DNA of 23,350 nt from Anaerolinea sp. Its GTDB lineage: Bacteria > Chloroflexota > Anaerolineae > Anaerolineales > Villigracilaceae. Location: contig JAIFKY010000062.1 of the NCBI GenBank assembly GCA_020049345.1, positions 1-23,350 of the forward strand, given 5' to 3'. The translations under genes and the position numbers were made by a program. Under the pieces are notes generated by a model. The model did not search any database. It saw only the letters and a list, made by a program, of their open reading frames with translations, and was not told the origin of the DNA. Below, piece after piece: positions 29-22,451 of this stretch. Within the stretch, counting starts at the first letter, position 1, and each line of letters opens with the position of its first letter.

Positions 29-1296
29 ATGAGCAAAGAAAATGAAGCCGTAATTCTAAGCGCCGCGCGCACAGCCATCGGAAAATTTCAAGGCGGACTG
101 AGCAGCCTCTCTGCTGTAAAACTTGGCGCGGCGGCGGTCAAAGCCGCAGTGGAGCGCGCAGGCATTGACCCAAACGATATTGAAGAAGTCTTGATGGGCA
201 ATGTCATTCAAGCGGGTAACGGACAAGCCCCCGCGCGGCAAGCGGCGATCTTTGCGGGGCTTCCAGCCACAGTCAGCGCGACCACCATCAACAAGGTTTG
301 CGGATCAGGTTTGAAAGCCGTCATGCTTTCGGCGCAAGCCATTCGCGCAGGCGACGCCGATCTCTTCGTAGCAGGCGGCATGGAATCCATGAGCCGTGCG
401 CCGTACCTCGTCAACGGGCGTTCGGGCGAATTGAAGTTCGGTCATCAACCCCTCACCGACGCCCTGCTCCACGACGGGCTGTGGGATCCGTTTGAAAATT
501 GGGGCATGGGCATGGCGGCGGAATTTATCGCGAATGAATACAAAATCACACGCGAGGCGATGGATGAATTTGCGCTTCGCTCCCACCTGAAAGCGGCGGC
601 GGCACAAGAAGCGGGACGGTTCAAGCCTGAGATTTTCCCTGTCCAAATTCCTGGTCGAAAAGGGCGGCGGCACAAGAAGCGGGACGGTTCAAGCCTGAGA
701 TTTTCCCTGTCCAAATTCCTGGTCGAAAAGGCGAAACGACAGCCTTCGACACAGACGAGGGACCGCGCAAAGATACCTCAATTGAGTCGCTTGCCAAACT
801 CAAGCCCGCCTTCAAGGCCGACGGCAAAGTGACCGCAGGCAATGCATCCTCCATGAATGATGGTGCGGCGGCGGTTGTGGTTGCGTCCCGCGCCTACACA
901 GAAAAAAATAATTTCAAACCAATGGCTCACATTACAGGCTACACGCAGGCGGCTTTGGAGCCGAAATATCTGTTTGCCGCGCCTGGGCTGGCAATTCCCA
1001 AACTGTTAAATAAAATCGGCTGGAAACTTGGCGACGTTGATCTCTTTGAAGTCAATGAAGCCTTTGCCGCGCAGGCTCTTGCAAACGGCTACGCCCTCGC
1101 CGATCAAGGCTGGGATTGGGACAAGGTCAATGTCAACGGCGGAGCGATTGCTCTCGGTCACCCACTCGGCGCGAGCGGGGCACGCATACTAACGACTCTG
1201 ATCTACGCCTTGAAAGATCGCGGACTAAAACGCGGAGTCGCTTCGTTATGTTTGGGTGGCGGCGAGGCTGTGGCAATGGCGATTGAGGTTGAGTAA
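29..1296 (+). pseudogene. acetyl-CoA C-acetyltransferase (thiolase II), reading frame broken by an internal 68-bp tandem duplication
   Basis: AGGAGG at 19..24 lies 4 nt upstream of ATG 29. Thiolase signatures are present: NKVCGSGLKA (nucleophile Cys), [24 protein letters not shown] and CLGGGEAVAMAIE. The ORF track splits the gene into 29..832 and 829..1296 in different frames. Deleting one copy (663..730) gives a continuous ...[46 protein letters not shown]... and a 399-aa product. Confidence 0.85.
595..730. repeat. perfect 2 x 68-bp tandem duplication inside the thiolase gene
   Basis: Bases 595..662 (ggcggcggcacaagaagcgggacggttcaagcctgagattttccctgtccaaattcctggtcgaaaag) are repeated exactly at 663..730. 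I compared them base by base. Confidence 0.95.
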
Positions 1297-17728: not shown

Positions 17729-19030
17729 TTATCCGCAGCCGCCGCCAGATTTATCTCGCTTGAGTTGCAGGACTATCTTGGCTTCAAATTCGAGCGCTTC
17801 ATATTCGACGGGACTGGGTGAGCAAGACTCGTAATTACTGCCCAATGCCGCAGGGAAGATATAGCCCAATTCGTCGTCACCCGCTTTCGGGTTGGCTTGC
17901 AGCGCTTTATCATCCGTGCCAAAGAATGCGATCCAGTTGTTGACTCCGCCTTCAAGAATATACGAGTTGGTCACGCCACTTCCGACAAGCAATTTCCATG
18001 CGTCGGTGGCGGCGGTTTCGTCATTGCCCATCACGATGAATACTGAGTTGGCGGGCGGTTCGCTGAGCAAGAGCGGAACAATTTCGGTGATGCGATCCAG
18101 CGGTACATTGACCGCGTCTTCGACGTGATACAGGTTGTATTCCGCTTCAGGGCGCACATCAATATAAATGGGATTCATCGCCTGATTGTATTTTGCCTTG
18201 AAGGCTTCGGCGGGCGTGATGTGTACCAGCCGTTTTGCAAGCATGTCATCAGCAGTATAAGTATAGGTGTTGACGATTGGATCTGCATTCAATTGCGGAA
18301 TGCTTTCGGTGCGCGTGAATTTGACCTTGTTATATTTGTCTTCGAGAGAAGGCGAGCCGATGAAGAAGACCGCCAACGCGCCGACAAACAATGCCACTGC
18401 GCCAGCCACGCGGATTTTCGGTTCCTTGCTCAAATCTTTTTTACCGATGATGCGTTCCAATTGTTCCGCGCCCCAGAACATGAAAAGCGCCATGAGGATG
18501 ACGAGCACAACCACCGCGCCGATGGGAATTCCAAAAACTTGATCGAGGGTCAAACGCCCTAAGTAGCCCGCGTTGTTGTACCAGTTGGTGAAGAGTGGTT
18601 CGGTTTCGCCGAAAAGGAATGCGCCCACAAATCCACCGAGCATGAAGAGCATACCGTCGATTTTTCCTGTAGATGCGGATGCAAGCGAGGTAGTGGGACA
18701 GAACCCGCCGATGATGAAGCCGACGCCCATGATAAGTCCGCCAAGAATGCCAGACCAGATGTAGGTTGTGTTGACCCAGACTTGGCTGAAGTCGAGGATG
18801 CCAAGTCCAACCGCGCCGAAAAGCAAAACCATGGCGGTGACAATGGCGGTAAACATGACCTTGAGCACGGTCAATTCGGTGAAGTAGAACTGCGCGGCAA
18901 GTTTGCGTGAATCGCCGAAACCTGACATTTCAAGGGTGAAGCCGAAGGCAAAGCCAACCAGCGCGAATACGAGATAACTCCACGGGTTAGCCGCACTGAC
19001 TGCGATAAGGGATGGGATGGGAAAATTCAT
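17729..19030 (-). CDS. YeeE/YedE-family sulfur-transport half-protein fused to a rhodanese-like domain lacking the catalytic Cys, with a C-terminal ...SGGGCG tail
   Basis: AGGAGA SD lies 7 nt upstream. The N-terminal ~190 aa are polytopic and carry the conserved GGFCPTTS motif. An extra TM helix is IRVAGAVALFVGALAVFFIG. The rhodanese-like block is IYIDVRPEAEYNLYHVEDAVNVP...FIVMGNDETAATDAW...ILEGGVNNW, with G where the active-site C is expected. Confidence 0.75.
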   Translation of the reverse strand: MNFPIPSLIAVSAANPWSYLVFALVGFAFGFTLEMSGFGDSRKLAAQFYFTELTVLKVMFTAIVTAMVLLFGAVGLGILDFSQVWVNTTYIWSGILGGLIMGVGFIIGGFCPTTSLASASTGKIDGMLFMLGGFVGAFLFGETEPLFTNWYNNAGYLGRLTLDQVFGIPIGAVVVLVILMALFMFWGAEQLERIIGKKDLSKEPKIRVAGAVALFVGALAVFFIGSPSLEDKYNKVKFTRTESIPQLNADPIVNTYTYTADDMLAKRLVHITPAEAFKAKYNQAMNPIYIDVRPEAEYNLYHVEDAVNVPLDRITEIVPLLLSEPPANSVFIVMGNDETAATDAWKLLVGSGVTNSYILEGGVNNWIAFFGTDDKALQANPKAGDDELGYIFPAALGSNYESCSPSPVEYEALEFEAKIVLQLKRDKSGGGCG

Positions 19031-19046: not shown

Positions 19047-19103
19047 TAATTACCAATTACTAATTACCAACCTGCGTAATTTGTAATTGGTGATTGGTAA
19101 TTA
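19047..19103 (-). repeat. AT-rich intercistronic hairpin overlapping the upstream stop codon (TAATTACCAAT family)
   Basis: taattaccaat (19047..19057) pairs with attggtaatta (19093..19103). Imperfect pairing continues inward to about 19070/19080. The hairpin contains the 14-mer attactaattacca at 19056..19069. The stop codon of the upstream gene is 19101..19103. Confidence 0.75.
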
Positions 19104-19646
19104 GTTCCACAACTTCCTGACGAAATACGCCAACGCATACGCCCCGCCGAAGATGGAAAACATCACCAGCCATGAACCAGCGGAGAGGGTCGTGCCGCCT
19201 GTCAGCGCCTGCCCCGATGTACATCCGCGAGCCATGCGCGCGCCGTAAAGGAAGATCACGCCGCCAAGGAATGCCATCAACCAGCGGGTGCGGTTGGAGA
19301 TGTTGGGACCTTTGGTGGTCATAAATTTGAGGCGTCCGTTGAATGCGCCAGAAGCGAATCCGCCGAGCAGTGCGCCGATGAAGACTGGGAGAATCCAATC
19401 GTCAAAAGGATTTTTATCGCCGCCAGCCATCTTCAACAAATAAGGATTGTTGTCCACGTGGGAAGGGGAAACCGCATCCACGAGCGCTGCGTCAATACGA
19501 GCGGTTGCGCCCGATGAGCCGAGTCCATTGCCTGTGAAGAGCAACGCCAGGAACAGAATAACGCCCAGCACCATTCCGCCAAAGTAAGGGTGTACGTAAG
19601 GTTTTTCAGGTCGGTTGAATATTGTTTTTTTTGTTTGAGTAGTCAT
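19101..19646 (-). CDS. YeeE/YedE-family sulfur-transport half-protein
   Basis: AAGGAG SD lies 6 nt upstream of ATG 19646; the track start at 19691 lacks an SD. The protein is polytopic and carries the conserved ARGCTSGQALTGG motif typical of the Sulf_transp family. Confidence 0.8.
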   Translation of the reverse strand: MTTQTKKTIFNRPEKPYVHPYFGGMVLGVILFLALLFTGNGLGSSGATARIDAALVDAVSPSHVDNNPYLLKMAGGDKNPFDDWILPVFIGALLGGFASGAFNGRLKFMTTKGPNISNRTRWLMAFLGGVIFLYGARMARGCTSGQALTGGTTLSAGSWLVMFSIFGGAYALAYFVRKLWN

Positions 19647-19690
19647 TTGATACTCCTTATTAATAAAACAGTTGCGAGGTACGAAATACA

Positions 19691-19733
19691 AGTAATGAGT
19701 AACGAGTTATGAGATTGCTCGTTACTCATTACT
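19691..19733 (-). repeat. perfect 16-bp intercistronic hairpin
   Basis: agtaatgagtaacgag (19691..19706) pairs with ctcgttactcattact (19718..19733), with an 11-nt loop. It lies between the cytochrome stop (19743) and the next start (19646). No good U-tract follows on the transcribed strand. Confidence 0.8.
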
Positions 19734-19742
19734 TTTTACTTA

Positions 19743-22451
19743 TTATTTTTTTTCCTGCTCTTCATGCACTTCCACTTCTTCATAACCTGTCACCATCGCG
19801 CGCATCGCCTCAAGCGGAGTTGCGCCCGTGGTGGTCATGTAGACATGGACAATGATGAATGTTCCGAACATCCACGCGACGAGGGAGTGGAATGGCGCAA
19901 GAACTGGAAGTCCGCCAAGCGCGTTTGTGAACGCGGGGAATTTTTGCACTGCCCACATCAACGAACCTGTGATAATTTGAAGCGGCAGTAATACATTCAA
20001 GATCATGAAGTAGGTAAACTTCTGAATCGGGTTCATGCGGCTGGTCGGCAATTTCTCAAACGGATGTCCTTCACCTTTGAAAATTCCAGAGATGTAATAC
20101 TTCGCCTGAACAATCGCGTCATCAAAGAAACCATACGGATGCGGAATAAATTCCTGAATGCGCTCAGTTGCAACATGGTAGAAGAGTGAGAATACCGCGT
20201 TCAGCACAAGAATAACCGCAATAACGTTGTGGATCGTCACCATGCCAGGGAACGAGAACACACCGAAGATATCGGGTCTGTGGATGATCAAACCTGTCAG
20301 AAGCAGAATAACGATGGAGGTGGTCTGGAGCCAGTGCCAGAAGCGGCGATACGGTTCGTACATGTAAACGCGCTCGGTCTTTGCGTGACCCTTAGCCTGT
20401 TTCTTCGACGATAAGAATCTCAGCGTCCCGTGACCAATTACGCCCAAAAGTGATCCAGCGAACATCAACGCGCCCAGCCAATCAATCCAACTTACACGGC
20501 TGGAGCCGAAAACATACATCTTATCTTTGGCGGGGGCAGGTTGATAGTACAACGCGCCATCTGCGCCAGTGACAATTTCACCCGTGCCGTTTACGTTGTT
20601 GTCCGCGTCAAAGACGGGCATCACAGGGGCGTGATCTGCAAGTTTGATGGATTGCGTCATACGCGAATTTTCGTTGTGACAGGCTTTGCAATCGTTGACC
20701 GCGTCATCGCCTTTGGCAACGTTGTGATTAATGCTGTACGGCTGAACCATGCCTTCGATGCGTGGATTATCCAACCCAAGCGCAACCAATTTGGCTTTGA
20801 CCGCGCCTTCTTTTGCAGGCGAATCAATCACTAATTCGGCGCTGCTCAGTTTTCCATCGCTGTTTGCGTCAAACGCAGCAACGATGTCGCTTGCGTAATT
20901 TCCACTATCAAGATACGCGGCTTCGAGGTCAACCAGACGGACGGGACGTTTGCTGCCATCGGCGTTGGCATCATCATACACCCAGTAGAAGGATGTAATC
21001 AGGTTGTACGGCGCAAGTAATGTATCGCCGTCAATATTTGTGCGGTTTAGTAAAACGGGTTCATAGCCCGATACAAGCGAGGTTACTTCATTCGGCGTAC
21101 CTTCCACGCCACGACATTCGGTGGAAGCGGTTCCGGCAGTTGTAATCACGGTCCAATCATAGGTTTGGATCGCAGGCGCGTACATTTGCGGGATATGGCA
21201 GGTTTCGCAGGCGACGGCATTCATGTGTGTGTCCACATAAGGCAGCCAGTCTGCATGGCTCTTGGTGGCGTCGTGGCAGTTTTCACAGCGGCGCATGGTG
21301 CCTTTGTATTCAGGCGCAACATTGAATTGTGCGCTTTCGCCGCGTGCAAAGTTATGATCTGGTCTTTGCAGGTATTCACCAATTTCCAAAGAGCGCGGAT
21401 CATAAACCAGGTGTTCAGGGTTGTTACTTTGGATTTCGCTGATGTGCGAGGGATTGTTCAACGCATAATGGCAATCAACACATTGCAACTGGCGTTCTGC
21501 GTGAATATCCCACGGGCGATTCAGTTCAGCCTTATTCGTCAGGTTTATGCCTGATTCGTTGATACGCTGTCCGCTGACAACTTGACCTGTGGTGGCTGTT
21601 TGCGGGTAGTTCAAGTCACACTGATTGACGGTGAGCGGGTCACCAGAATTGGGATGCACTTCACCATGACAAGTCGCACAGTTGGCATTGGTGGGGTCTT
21701 GAATGCCAATCGCATCACTCTTGATTTCGCCAATTTCGTTGAAGGCATCTGCGTTCCAAGTCCAGCCGTCAGTAGATTTGCTGACGATGTTCAAGTCGGT
21801 CAAGGTGGCGGTGTTGGCATTGCCAAAATCACCCGCTTGGATTGCCTCTGTGCGGGCGGTGGTGTTGGGAGATTTAAGGTGGCAGAGGAAACAATTCATT
21901 TCCATCGTGCCAGATTTGTCCCAATCCCAAACTGTGGGATTTCCATCTTTATCAAGAATGGCTGTTTCGGGATTTTCGACATCATCCTTGAGATTGTCAA
22001 GCGCCGCGCCATCGCGGGATGTGGTGGTTGGTCCGCCGCCGACGATTCTCTGTCCGTTGAGCATGAGCCATTCAGCGGTGGAAAGGTCGAGTCGTTCATC
22101 ACCATTCTGTGAGAGGTAGCGATAGGTCAGCGGATCCCATTTGCCAAAGAGTCCGGTGCTGGAACTCAGGTCTTTTGTTTCTTTATAATCTGAAAGCCCG
22201 AGGTCAGAGTGGAAGGCGTGGCTTTGGATGAAGTTCGTGTCGTGGCATTGTCCGCAGGTTTGCATGGTTGAAACCGCATTGCTGCTTTCGAGGACATTCA
22301 CGCCATCAACATCGAGCAGGGCAAAGTTCGGGTGCAGGACAGATGCCTGGGGTGTCGGAGCAGGTTCGGGCGAGGCGAGAACGGTTCCAATTCCAATGGC
22401 AAGAGCCAGGGCAATTAATCCAAGCAGGAGAAATAATGAGTATCGTTTCAT
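19743..22451 (-). CDS. fusion protein: signal/anchor peptide + heptahaem c-type cytochrome domain (Otr-like) + C-terminal FdnI/HydC/PhsC-type cytochrome b membrane domain (CbcL-like architecture)
   Basis: There are seven CxxCH motifs: CGQCH, CFLCH, CATCH, CVDCH, CENCH, CETCH and CKACH. The N-terminal hydrophobic leader is LFLLLGLIALALAIGIGTVLA. The C-terminal ~250 aa have 5 TM helices with the Ni_hydr_CYTB-type signature YRRFWHWLQTTSIVILLLTGLIIH and conserved His residues in later helices. AAGGAA SD lies upstream. Confidence 0.85.
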   Translation of the reverse strand: MKRYSLFLLLGLIALALAIGIGTVLASPEPAPTPQASVLHPNFALLDVDGVNVLESSNAVSTMQTCGQCHDTNFIQSHAFHSDLGLSDYKETKDLSSSTGLFGKWDPLTYRYLSQNGDERLDLSTAEWLMLNGQRIVGGGPTTTSRDGAALDNLKDDVENPETAILDKDGNPTVWDWDKSGTMEMNCFLCHLKSPNTTARTEAIQAGDFGNANTATLTDLNIVSKSTDGWTWNADAFNEIGEIKSDAIGIQDPTNANCATCHGEVHPNSGDPLTVNQCDLNYPQTATTGQVVSGQRINESGINLTNKAELNRPWDIHAERQLQCVDCHYALNNPSHISEIQSNNPEHLVYDPRSLEIGEYLQRPDHNFARGESAQFNVAPEYKGTMRRCENCHDATKSHADWLPYVDTHMNAVACETCHIPQMYAPAIQTYDWTVITTAGTASTECRGVEGTPNEVTSLVSGYEPVLLNRTNIDGDTLLAPYNLITSFYWVYDDANADGSKRPVRLVDLEAAYLDSGNYASDIVAAFDANSDGKLSSAELVIDSPAKEGAVKAKLVALGLDNPRIEGMVQPYSINHNVAKGDDAVNDCKACHNENSRMTQSIKLADHAPVMPVFDADNNVNGTGEIVTGADGALYYQPAPAKDKMYVFGSSRVSWIDWLGALMFAGSLLGVIGHGTLRFLSSKKQAKGHAKTERVYMYEPYRRFWHWLQTTSIVILLLTGLIIHRPDIFGVFSFPGMVTIHNVIAVILVLNAVFSLFYHVATERIQEFIPHPYGFFDDAIVQAKYYISGIFKGEGHPFEKLPTSRMNPIQKFTYFMILNVLLPLQIITGSLMWAVQKFPAFTNALGGLPVLAPFHSLVAWMFGTFIIVHVYMTTTGATPLEAMRAMVTGYEEVEVHEEQEKK

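Follow-up and report, generated by a model that had tools for sequence, protein, structure and literature searches.

Results

A cytochrome fusion gene lies directly downstream of otr

The window, by which we mean the whole 23,350-nucleotide (nt) stretch of Anaerolinea sp. contig JAIFKY010000062.1 analysed here, contains on its minus strand a single uninterrupted open reading frame (ORF; 19743..22451) with an ATG start that encodes a protein of 902 amino acids (aa). The protein joins a c-type cytochrome domain with seven haem motifs (the c-domain) to a membrane cytochrome b, and we call its gene the c7/b fusion gene. It lies 59 nt downstream of otr, on the same strand. We found that the c-domain is an old paralogue of Otr that has kept the fold and seven haems and has lost the catalytic haem 2.

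Judged by its sequence, the upstream gene (22511..>23350, minus strand) is a genuine otr. It runs beyond the end of the window, which holds its 3' part, encoding the C-terminal 279 aa. This incomplete protein matches the Otr model TIGR04315 with an E-value of 4.4e-100 and 335.8 bits, and PF11783 with an E-value of 2.8e-56. The full-length protein (481 aa) was taken from an overlapping, nearly identical JGI contig (L001). It scores 548.9 bits against TIGR04315, above the cutoff of 375, and matches Otr of Shewanella oneidensis (SO4144; PDB 1sp3) with an E-value of 2.2e-129. It has eight CxxCH motifs and keeps the equivalents of Lys56 and Cys64 in TIGKVNQINNFC ('GKVNQINNFC'); a residue count along the sequence locates these two residues of 1sp3 in 'RGKKNSINNFC'. 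On L001, a gene for an ArsR/SmtB-type regulator lies upstream of otr.

The CxxCH motifs of the 902-aa protein are at aa 66, 187, 258, 324, 389, 415 and 588. A hydropathy scan gave an N-terminal signal or anchor helix and five transmembrane (TM) helices beyond aa 655. The signal peptide or anchor, MKRYSLFLLLGLIALALAIGIGTVLA (aa 1-26; 22374..22451, minus strand, as are all coordinates of this protein), has a hydropathy peak at aa 6-24 and N-terminal Lys and Arg residues, and is predicted to be cleaved. The extracytoplasmic heptahaem c-domain (aa 27-654; 20490..22373) is supported by a structure predicted with AlphaFold2 (AF2), Foldseek, hhalign and the conservation of His residues. Its CxxCH sites are at 22242-22256, 21879-21893, 21666-21680, 21468-21482, 21273-21287, 21195-21209 and 20676-20690. 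One TM helix (aa 655-684; 20400..20489), recognized as a hydropathy peak followed by a loop with eight Lys or Arg residues, joins the c-domain to the cytochrome b. This helix is also seen in an AF2 model of the full-length protein based on 56 close homologues, a model with an overall pLDDT of 52 and of less than 50 in the c-domain. Hydropathy and the positive-inside rule place the c-domain on the outer side of the membrane.

The dihaem cytochrome b domain has four TM helices (aa 695-893; 19773..20369). PF01292 (Ni_hydr_CYTB) matches aa 698-889 with an E-value of 7.4e-22. The best-scoring named model for aa 654-891 is that of PhsC (NF011582; E-value 1e-37), from the Salmonella thiosulfate reductase PhsABC; the score is 130 bits, below the cutoff of 204, and the match, which takes in the extra first TM helix, spans profile positions 15-246 of 248. 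The formate dehydrogenase gamma (FdnI) model TIGR01583 also matches this domain (E-value 5.8e-13). The candidate haem b ligands, His706, His741, His855 and His869, are invariant in 56 homologues. In E. coli FdnI the haem b ligands are His18, His57, His155 and His169, and we take the spacing in the fusion protein (one His in each of the first two helices and two His 14 residues apart in the last) to resemble that of FdnI. The protein is therefore of the bc type, the CbcL/CbcBA kind, with a PF01292 dihaem b domain containing four His and an outward-facing multihaem c-domain. This agrees with the initial annotation, which had described seven CxxCH motifs fused to a five-TM b-type cytochrome in a CbcL-like arrangement.

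Fused and split forms of the module

We found that the fusion is not peculiar to this contig. The initial annotation had allowed that a sequencing error near position 20500 might have merged two genes. We saw no frameshift or internal stop in 19743..22451, and an identical 902-aa product is encoded on the independent JGI contig (L001). In NCBI, JGI, ENA and Logan (Anaerolineales/Chloroflexota), full-length fusions at 72-100% identity make up more than 120 clusters. At 40-59% identity, 109 of 120 clusters are fused, and more than 200 of the database clusters listed contain the fused ORF. Relatives are encoded in at least 396 species genomes of Chloroflexota and Proteobacteria. The proteobacterial ones (~65% identity) come from Parasulfuritortus cantonensis LSR1, Ideonella, Rubrivivax, Burkholderiales, Steroidobacteraceae and Lysobacterales.

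Split forms of the module exist as well. An exhaustive search with the c-domain gave 771 clusters at 50% identity, 295 of them with an E-value of 1e-30 or less. Among 101 full-length representatives, 38 were fused and 63 were not. The split form consists of a c-type protein of 675-727 aa and a separate PF01292 protein of 204-222 aa, encoded by genes with overlapping stop and start codons, and the linking TM helix stays on the c-type protein. For 10 unfused representatives, the members come from metagenome-assembled genomes (MAGs) of Latescibacterota and Planctomycetota and are named only 'hypothetical protein'. In a rough neighbour-joining tree, split forms are scattered among the fused ones, which make up at least four or five clades, and the c7 and b genes have probably undergone repeated fusion and fission. 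We conclude that fused and split are two interchangeable gene states of one module. The overlapping gene pairs in other lineages are what one could cite for an assembly or sequencing artefact in which a c-type cytochrome gene and a cytochrome b gene were merged. We give this explanation essentially no weight: it is refuted by the recurrence of the fusion, in the identical product on a second contig and in the close and distant fused clusters counted above, and fusion status shows clade structure on the tree.

The c-domain has the fold of Otr

The initial annotation had proposed, from three aligned motifs, that the c-domain is paralogous to the upstream gene, and our results support this. BLASTP of the two window proteins aligned aa 315-434 with residues 14-99 of the Otr fragment (E-value 1e-8, 27% identity, 34% gaps). 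This region is exactly that of the three motifs, whose alignments are real and beyond chance. A phmmer search of the PDB with the c-domain returned 1sp3 (E-value 0.0027) and paired 'YSINHNV...CKACH' with 'WRINHMV...CNDCH' of Otr. We compared profiles of 81 diverse c-domains and 80 Otr sequences (79 from genome loci plus 1sp3) using hhalign. Residues 245-440 of the c-domain aligned with residues 173-307 of Otr with a probability of 98.6% and an E-value of 5.8e-16, and haems 3-6 of the fusion protein were mapped onto haems 4-7 of Otr. The similarity is thus not limited to generic haem-binding motifs.

Structure prediction gave the same answer. The AF2 model of aa 30-650, built from an alignment of 143 sequences (42-84% identity), had a pLDDT of 90.7 and a pTM of 0.91. 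When this model was compared with the PDB using Foldseek, 1sp3 was the sole significant match (E-value 4e-9, probability 1.00, 476 columns). The next match had an E-value of 0.25, and NrfA, HAO, MtrC, OcwA and other multihaem folds were not matched. On this model the c-domain has the Otr fold, although the TM-scores are low. It is ~180 aa longer than Otr through insertions. With a profile of diverse c-domains, hmmsearch against the PDB did not place 1sp3 among the best 60 of 132 matches. Since phmmer, hhalign and Foldseek all found 1sp3, HMMER profile searches alone appear too weak at such a distance.

The relationship is old. The c-domain scores 45 bits against the Otr model TIGR04315 (cutoff 375; profile positions 175-271 of 440) and 45.8 bits against TIGR04314 (E-value 3.8e-12; cutoff 250), the model of the Methanosarcina cytochrome MmcA. 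Otr itself scores 45.8 bits against the MmcA model. Among 60 diverse members of the c-domain family, 55 match the Otr model and 51 match the MmcA model. The identity between c-domain and Otr is only ~15-27%. Because the cross-scores are similarly low and the identity is in this range, the c-domain is not a recent tandem duplicate of Otr, as the phrase 'duplicated in tandem' in the initial annotation would suggest. On these comparisons, the c-domain, Otr and MmcA look like three old, roughly equidistant branches.

Two motifs are shared with Otr, the C-terminal 'H.V....C..CH' and the core 'CH...H....TH...VAC.TCHIP...DW'. A dihaem motif, 'C..CH-x(3-7)-H-x-WLP-x(4)-H-x(5)-C..CH' (aa 388-420; ~21192..21290), is common to the c-domain family, Otr and the cytochrome 28pb. 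The Otr version reads 'CEQCH...H....LNTHLSAVACQTCH', and that of 28pb is at residues 104-141. This motif may be a deep common building block of the c-domain family, Otr and 28pb cytochromes.

The catalytic haem 2 of Otr is missing from the c-domain

We found that the haem motifs of the c-domain and Otr are colinear and that one is missing. In a global profile alignment, haem 1 of the fusion protein corresponds to haem 1 of Otr, haem 2 to haem 3, and haems 3-7 to haems 4-8. Haem 2 of Otr, the catalytic haem, has no partner in the c-domain in either the greedy or the global profile alignment. The global alignment is forced, with statistical support for its central part only. A minority of relatives have eight haems, and their extra motif, 'W.R.CG.CH.GGGP' (e.g., 'CGTCHVGGG'), occupies the columns of 'W....G.RHVGGGP' in the seven-haem relatives. 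Column-by-column alignment with these eight-haem relatives locates a vestigial haem-2 site, WLMLNGQRIVGGGP (aa 128-141; 22029..22070), which in the forced global alignment falls where Otr has NKCMSCHAGYGW. Both Cys residues are substituted at this site (CG.CH.GGG to.G.R[HI]VGGG). The window protein reads 'NGQRIVGGG' there, and the haem-2 CxxCH is also absent from all seven-haem relatives. Cys64 of Otr aligns with a Tyr. At the position of Lys56 the window protein does have a Lys ('FGKW'), a residue that is not conserved across the diverse family.

The initial annotation had recommended a check of the distal ligands, which we made by conservation. Among 81 relatives (31-48% identity), the seven CxxCH motifs and His40, His317, His366, His409 and His576 are invariant, and His81 and His399 are at least 90% conserved. 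There are thus exactly seven conserved His residues outside the motifs, matching the seven haems. No conserved Lys or Cys was found at the Otr active-site positions in the 81 diverse c-domains. With seven distal His for seven haems and the haem-2 motif lost, the c-domain reads as a wire and not as an enzyme, and it looks like a degenerated enzyme reused for electron transfer. It lacks the defining features of the Otr family (eight haem motifs, including that of the Lys-ligated haem 2, and the active-site Cys), and its sequence has the pattern of an Otr-like heptahaem cytochrome without haem 2 and with seven distal His. The description of the c-domain as a 'catalytic-type' cytochrome does not survive these results.

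The same results bear on the possibility, also raised in the initial annotation, that the fusion protein is a self-sufficient quinol:substrate oxidoreductase. The Otr-like fold would fit such an enzyme. In addition, the eight-haem relatives keep the haem-2 CxxCH, some of them without a separate Otr, and the ancestral form may have been catalytic. We nevertheless regard this possibility as highly improbable for the window protein. The haem-2 motif is gone from it and from its seven-haem relatives, the active-site Cys is replaced by Tyr, the Lys is not a family feature, the seven conserved distal His serve seven haems, and an intact Otr is always encoded next door.

The eight-haem relatives (~695 aa, with a separate cytochrome b) have a CxxCH at the haem-2 position, and most have a 'GKWC'-type Lys and Cys nearby. 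They are encoded at loci L088 (7001-9732), L090 (3837-6546) and L089 (5591-9702). L088 and L090 have no Otr neighbour; the L088 genes lie behind a sigma54 activator, as do Geobacter cbcBA, and DUF3373 is near both. At L089, otr lies upstream of the eight-haem relative and there are no transporter genes; this locus rules out the generalization that eight-haem relatives never adjoin Otr. From their sequences, the eight-haem relatives are candidates for an ancestral, possibly catalytic form.

The c-domain also contains an EF-hand-like loop, AFDANSDGKLSSAEL (pattern read as DANSDGKLSSAEL; aa 526-540; 20832..20876). The Pfam model EF-hand_1 matches it with an E-value of only 0.038. Close relatives have Asp528, Gly533 and Glu539 without exception, and conservation of Asp528 and Glu539 is still at least 90% among distant relatives. 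The c-domain family profile draws many weak calmodulin matches in the PDB. The loop may be a structural calcium site.

A conserved cassette links otr, c7/b and transporter genes

Eighty genome loci extended far enough to include the neighbouring genes, and all 80 had the gene order [ArsR]-Otr-c7/b-PmpA-like-PmpB-like/rhodanese. No arsR gene was detected in those from Proteobacteria. We also examined seven more distant seven-haem relatives (33-49% identity), fused or split, and each of them lies in the same cassette; such loci are L083, L084 and L091 (fused) and L085, L086 and L087 (split), with L002 as a close relative. The neighbouring Otrs that we checked all have eight CxxCH motifs. Six of eight match the strict pattern GK.N...NN[FY]C, which contains the Lys56 and Cys64 equivalents, and those of L084 and L089 do not.

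Two genes downstream of the c7/b fusion gene encode half-size PF04143 proteins that match the C-terminal and the N-terminal halves of YeeE, respectively. The first (19101..19691, minus strand), which in the loci examined always comes next after the c7/b module, encodes the PmpA-like half of a split YeeE/YedE-family sulfur transporter (PF04143 E-value 1.6e-20, profile positions 159-309 of 310). The second (17729..19030, minus strand) encodes a 433-aa protein composed of a PmpB-like half-transporter (PF04143 E-value 4.1e-15, profile positions 11-186), one additional TM helix, a rhodanese-like domain (PF00581 E-value 1.6e-11) that lacks the catalytic Cys, and a C-terminal GGCG. PmpA and PmpB, from which the concept of a split transporter comes (PMC11582611), are likewise two PF04143 half proteins; the PmpB-like protein described here differs from PmpB by the additional TM helix, Cys-less rhodanese domain and GGCG. 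We did not find this arrangement in the papers searched.

The C-terminal GGCG is encoded by the last four codons of the PmpB-like gene (17732..17743, minus strand). All 78 orthologues compared have it, four of them at 39-49% identity, as do L087 and L091. Its Cys is the only invariant Cys of the soluble domain. The sulfur-carrying arm of SoxY has the sequence GGCGG, and the GGCG tail presumably recalls this motif. A soxY variant adjoins otr in lucinid symbionts (PMC11237559). In the rhodanese-like domain (~17729..18360, minus strand), the loop of the catalytic Cys reads 'IVMGNDETAA' ('MGNDE'), and [MI][SGD]N[DN]E is found in all orthologues shown; the domain is presumably inactive. Positive-inside counting weakly suggests that it faces outward, the side of Otr.

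These neighbours bear on the substrate of Otr. The closest models for the transporter halves are TsuA (thiosulfate) and PF04143 ('Sulphur transport'). Weak matches to the YedE/FdhT selenium models were also obtained. Together with the ArsR/SmtB-type regulator, the latter matches could indicate that the cassette delivers electrons to Otr for another substrate (selenite or tellurite, nitrite or hydroxylamine, or a protein-bound sulfur adduct), in detoxification or assimilation and not in respiration. The Ext operon of Geobacter also encodes a rhodanese-like lipoprotein. NCBIfam lists the multihaem cytochromes ExtM, ExtN and ExtO in this selenite/tellurite-reduction operon, and Otr has been reported to reduce nitrite and hydroxylamine in vitro. 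We consider another substrate somewhat unlikely, since the closest transporter models are for thiosulfate and sulfur, the active-site Cys and Lys of Otr are conserved, and the GGCG tail recalls a sulfur carrier.

The proteobacterial cassettes (L069-L081, from Beta- and Gammaproteobacteria and including L073 from the cultured Parasulfuritortus cantonensis LSR1, L071 from Ideonella and L079 from Rubrivivax) are ~65-74% identical to the Anaerolineales copies. This suggests that the cassette has moved horizontally between phyla.

Two loci contain additional related genes. In an Ardenticatenaceae MAG (L083, 13893-18266), a second, longer PF11783 (Otr-like) protein of 745 aa is encoded ~1.2 kb past the last transporter gene of the cassette, beyond one small ORF on the opposite strand. 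It is followed by genes for a 4Fe-4S ferredoxin-type protein and an NrfD-type membrane protein. By gene content, another Otr-family protein appears to be paired here with a quinol module of a different kind. At L066 (16780-19095), a second ArsR-like gene and then a distant pair of YeeE halves (30-34% identity) lie ~3 kb downstream of the cassette.

The remaining genes of the window are housekeeping genes (thiolase, 3-hydroxyacyl-CoA dehydrogenase, CofD, GAPDH, PGK, TIM, Obg and sensor kinases). The thiolase gene (29..1296, plus strand) appears broken, with Thiolase_N in ORF 29..832 and Thiolase_C in the overlapping ORF 829..1296. The last ~50 residues of ORF 29..832 look out of frame, and the break appears to be a frameshift, a pseudogene or an assembly error. 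Promoter, terminator and Rfam scans added nothing.

Relationship to known Otr-like and bc-type cytochromes

We compared the module with its closest known counterparts. Otr has haem motifs colinear with those of the c-domain, shares its C-terminal and core motifs and is its only significant structural match. The c-domain differs from Otr in having seven haems and not eight, in lacking the haem-2 motif, and in being membrane-tethered and joined to a cytochrome b. MmcA, which is related to Otr and lacks the second haem motif, is a heptahaem cytochrome of the Methanosarcina Rnf complex; it has seven bis-His haems and functions as an electron conduit (bioRxiv 10.1101/2023.04.20.537704). The c-domain is likewise an Otr-related heptahaem protein without haem 2. 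In contrast to the c-domain, MmcA is archaeal, ~500 aa long, without a TM helix of its own and encoded in an Rnf operon, and two of its motifs are CX3CH and CX4CH. The c-domain is bacterial, has seven canonical CxxCH motifs and is paired with a predicted quinol-oxidizing cytochrome b and Otr. Its score, context and motifs are not those of the MmcA family, and no Rnf genes were found in the window or the loci. The initial annotation had contrasted the fusion of a membrane anchor to an enzyme-type homologue with known quinol dehydrogenases. The idea has precedents, namely MmcA and the work of Joshi et al. discussed below.

CbcL and CbcBA are bc-type quinol oxidoreductases. Geobacter CbcBA (GSU0593/0594) and CbcL (GSU0274) have the same design as the fusion protein, a PF01292-type dihaem b and an outer multihaem c domain. 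CbcA has seven haems and a C-terminal TM anchor, its gene is upstream of cbcB, and CbcB homologues are annotated as 'thiosulfate reductase'-like. The module described here differs in its regulator, which is of the ArsR type and not sigma54/BccR, and in its proposed acceptor, which is the adjacent enzyme and not a periplasmic Ppc cytochrome. Cytochrome 28pb (278 aa, seven CxxCH; printed as '2BPB' in a review, PMC13591261) is probably Geobacter CbcA. It matches the c-domain only locally, over ~34 residues (E-values 0.013 and 1e-3). It was not among the Foldseek matches, the library of which ends with releases of 2026-04-08 and may not contain it, and a 92-aa fragment reconstructed from 28pb gave no match when used as a query. 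By sequence, the c-domain does not appear to be orthologous to Geobacter CbcA and belongs to the Otr/MmcA superfamily.

Fusions of cbcB and cbcA in Chloroflexi have been mentioned in the literature and are probably the fused c7/b family. Joshi et al. proposed cbcBA-like genes and these fusions as markers of extracellular respiration, and MmcA reduces Fe(III) as well as anthraquinone-2,6-disulfonate (AQDS). The c7/b module might therefore be a general extracellular or periplasmic outlet, like CbcBA, CbcL or MmcA, that passes electrons to Fe(III), humics or soluble cytochromes, with Otr as one acceptor or a passenger. The Otr-free loci L088 and L090, with a sigma54-regulated context like that of Geobacter cbcBA, would fit this explanation. 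We consider it very unlikely. Every seven-haem member with readable context sits between Otr, directly upstream, and the PmpAB-like genes; the relatives that lack an Otr neighbour are those with eight haems; and the window contains no outer-membrane conduit and no other multihaem genes.

Other known systems are more distant. The cassette has no genes for PhsA or PhsB (molybdopterin or iron-sulfur subunits), and the partner of the PhsC-like domain is the chain of c-type haems. The neighbours of otr in Shewanella, SO4142 and SO4143, were considered as a known equivalent and rejected; SO4142 is a monohaem cytochrome c and not the same module. A cluster of Otr and cytochrome b561 in an Ignavibacteriae MAG has been read as quinol-linked (PMC7509429).

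Discussion

Our results are most consistent with a role of the 902-aa protein as the electron-input module of the adjacent Otr, which it would serve as a dedicated, membrane-bound quinol dehydrogenase of the bc type. This was one of the two possibilities raised in the initial annotation; it is the best-supported reading, and we think it probably correct. It is based on the bc architecture, the homology to Otr, the loss of haem 2, the constant linkage to otr, and the precedents of MmcA and CbcL/CbcBA. Domain composition, homology, the loss of the haem-2 motif and gene linkage were established above, and the direction of electron flow, the contact with Otr and the substrate are proposals. Menaquinol would be oxidized at the PhsC/FdnI-type dihaem cytochrome b (aa ~695-893). 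The two b haems would carry the electrons across the membrane to the chain of seven bis-His c haems (aa 27-654), which would hand them to the eight-haem Otr. Otr would then reduce its substrate, most likely tetrathionate or a related S-S or sulfane compound, at the Lys-ligated haem 2. The product would probably be handled by the co-transcribed PmpAB-like transporter, and the invariant Cys of GGCG may carry sulfur covalently. We speculate that Otr docks on the c7 domain as two Otr-like subunits would dock on each other.

Several points weigh against electron input to Otr. The Foldseek TM-scores of the c-domain model against 1sp3 are low (0.28 and 0.39, with a root mean square deviation of 10 Å), indicating large insertions or rearrangements. 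That all seven c haems are bis-His is inferred from conservation only. A PhsC/FdnI-like quinone site would lie near the cytoplasmic side, where quinol oxidation would dissipate proton-motive force, which is odd for a high-potential acceptor. The substrate of Otr is uncertain; published work describes in vitro reduction of tetrathionate, of nitrite and of hydroxylamine. The cassette is also found in sulfur-oxidizing Proteobacteria (L073, Parasulfuritortus), where reverse flow is conceivable.

In the reverse direction, Otr would oxidize thiosulfate or another reduced sulfur compound outside the membrane, and the c7/b protein would reduce quinone, as one half of an FdnGHI-like redox loop that builds proton-motive force. 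The b domain does match the FdnI model, as described above. FdnI is a quinone-reducing subunit with its quinone site on the cytoplasmic side. Besides Parasulfuritortus, the sulfur-oxidizing or facultative hosts of the cassette include Ideonella (L071) and Rubrivivax (L079). For Seep-SRB2, reverse operation of CbcBA has been proposed (PMC10553843). We nonetheless judge this direction unlikely, because Otr has been characterized as a reductase and most hosts are Anaerolineales. We assume that the Anaerolineales hosts use menaquinone. At ~+198 mV for tetrathionate/thiosulfate and ~-74 mV for menaquinone, oxidation of thiosulfate to tetrathionate would be strongly uphill against menaquinone.

A more far-reaching version of the electron-input proposal is possible, and we offer it tentatively, with more doubt than belief. 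The cassette might encode an undescribed, deeply conserved sulfur machine in which live Otr docks on its own degenerated, quinone-wired paralogue to form a pseudo-homodimer. The Cys of the PmpAB-like GGCG would then be a SoxY-like swinging arm that gives covalent sulfur to, or takes it from, the Otr active site, and the eight-haem forms of L088 and L090 would represent the ancestral self-sufficient quinol:substrate oxidoreductase. If true, it would settle which physiological partners and which substrate route the Otr family has, matters that have long been cryptic.

What is new here is that the c-module of a bc-type quinol dehydrogenase is drawn from the Otr/MmcA superfamily; the bc design itself was already known. 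In open-access papers and preprints we found no description of the c-type partner as a haem-2-less paralogue of Otr, or of the cassette as a unit. Otr is widespread, and the finding would supply a cognate quinol dehydrogenase for it. Because this partner is a degenerated Otr paralogue, it would be a bacterial counterpart of archaeal MmcA, with an enzyme converted into a wire. The results also call for caution in taking 'cbcBA-like fusions' of Chloroflexi as markers of extracellular electron transfer. The fixed cassette of four to five genes ties Otr to a sulfur transporter with a SoxY-like Cys tail. Anaerolineales are abundant in sludge, sediments and groundwater, and the cassette provides testable hypotheses for the cycling of tetrathionate and thiosulfate in these bacteria.

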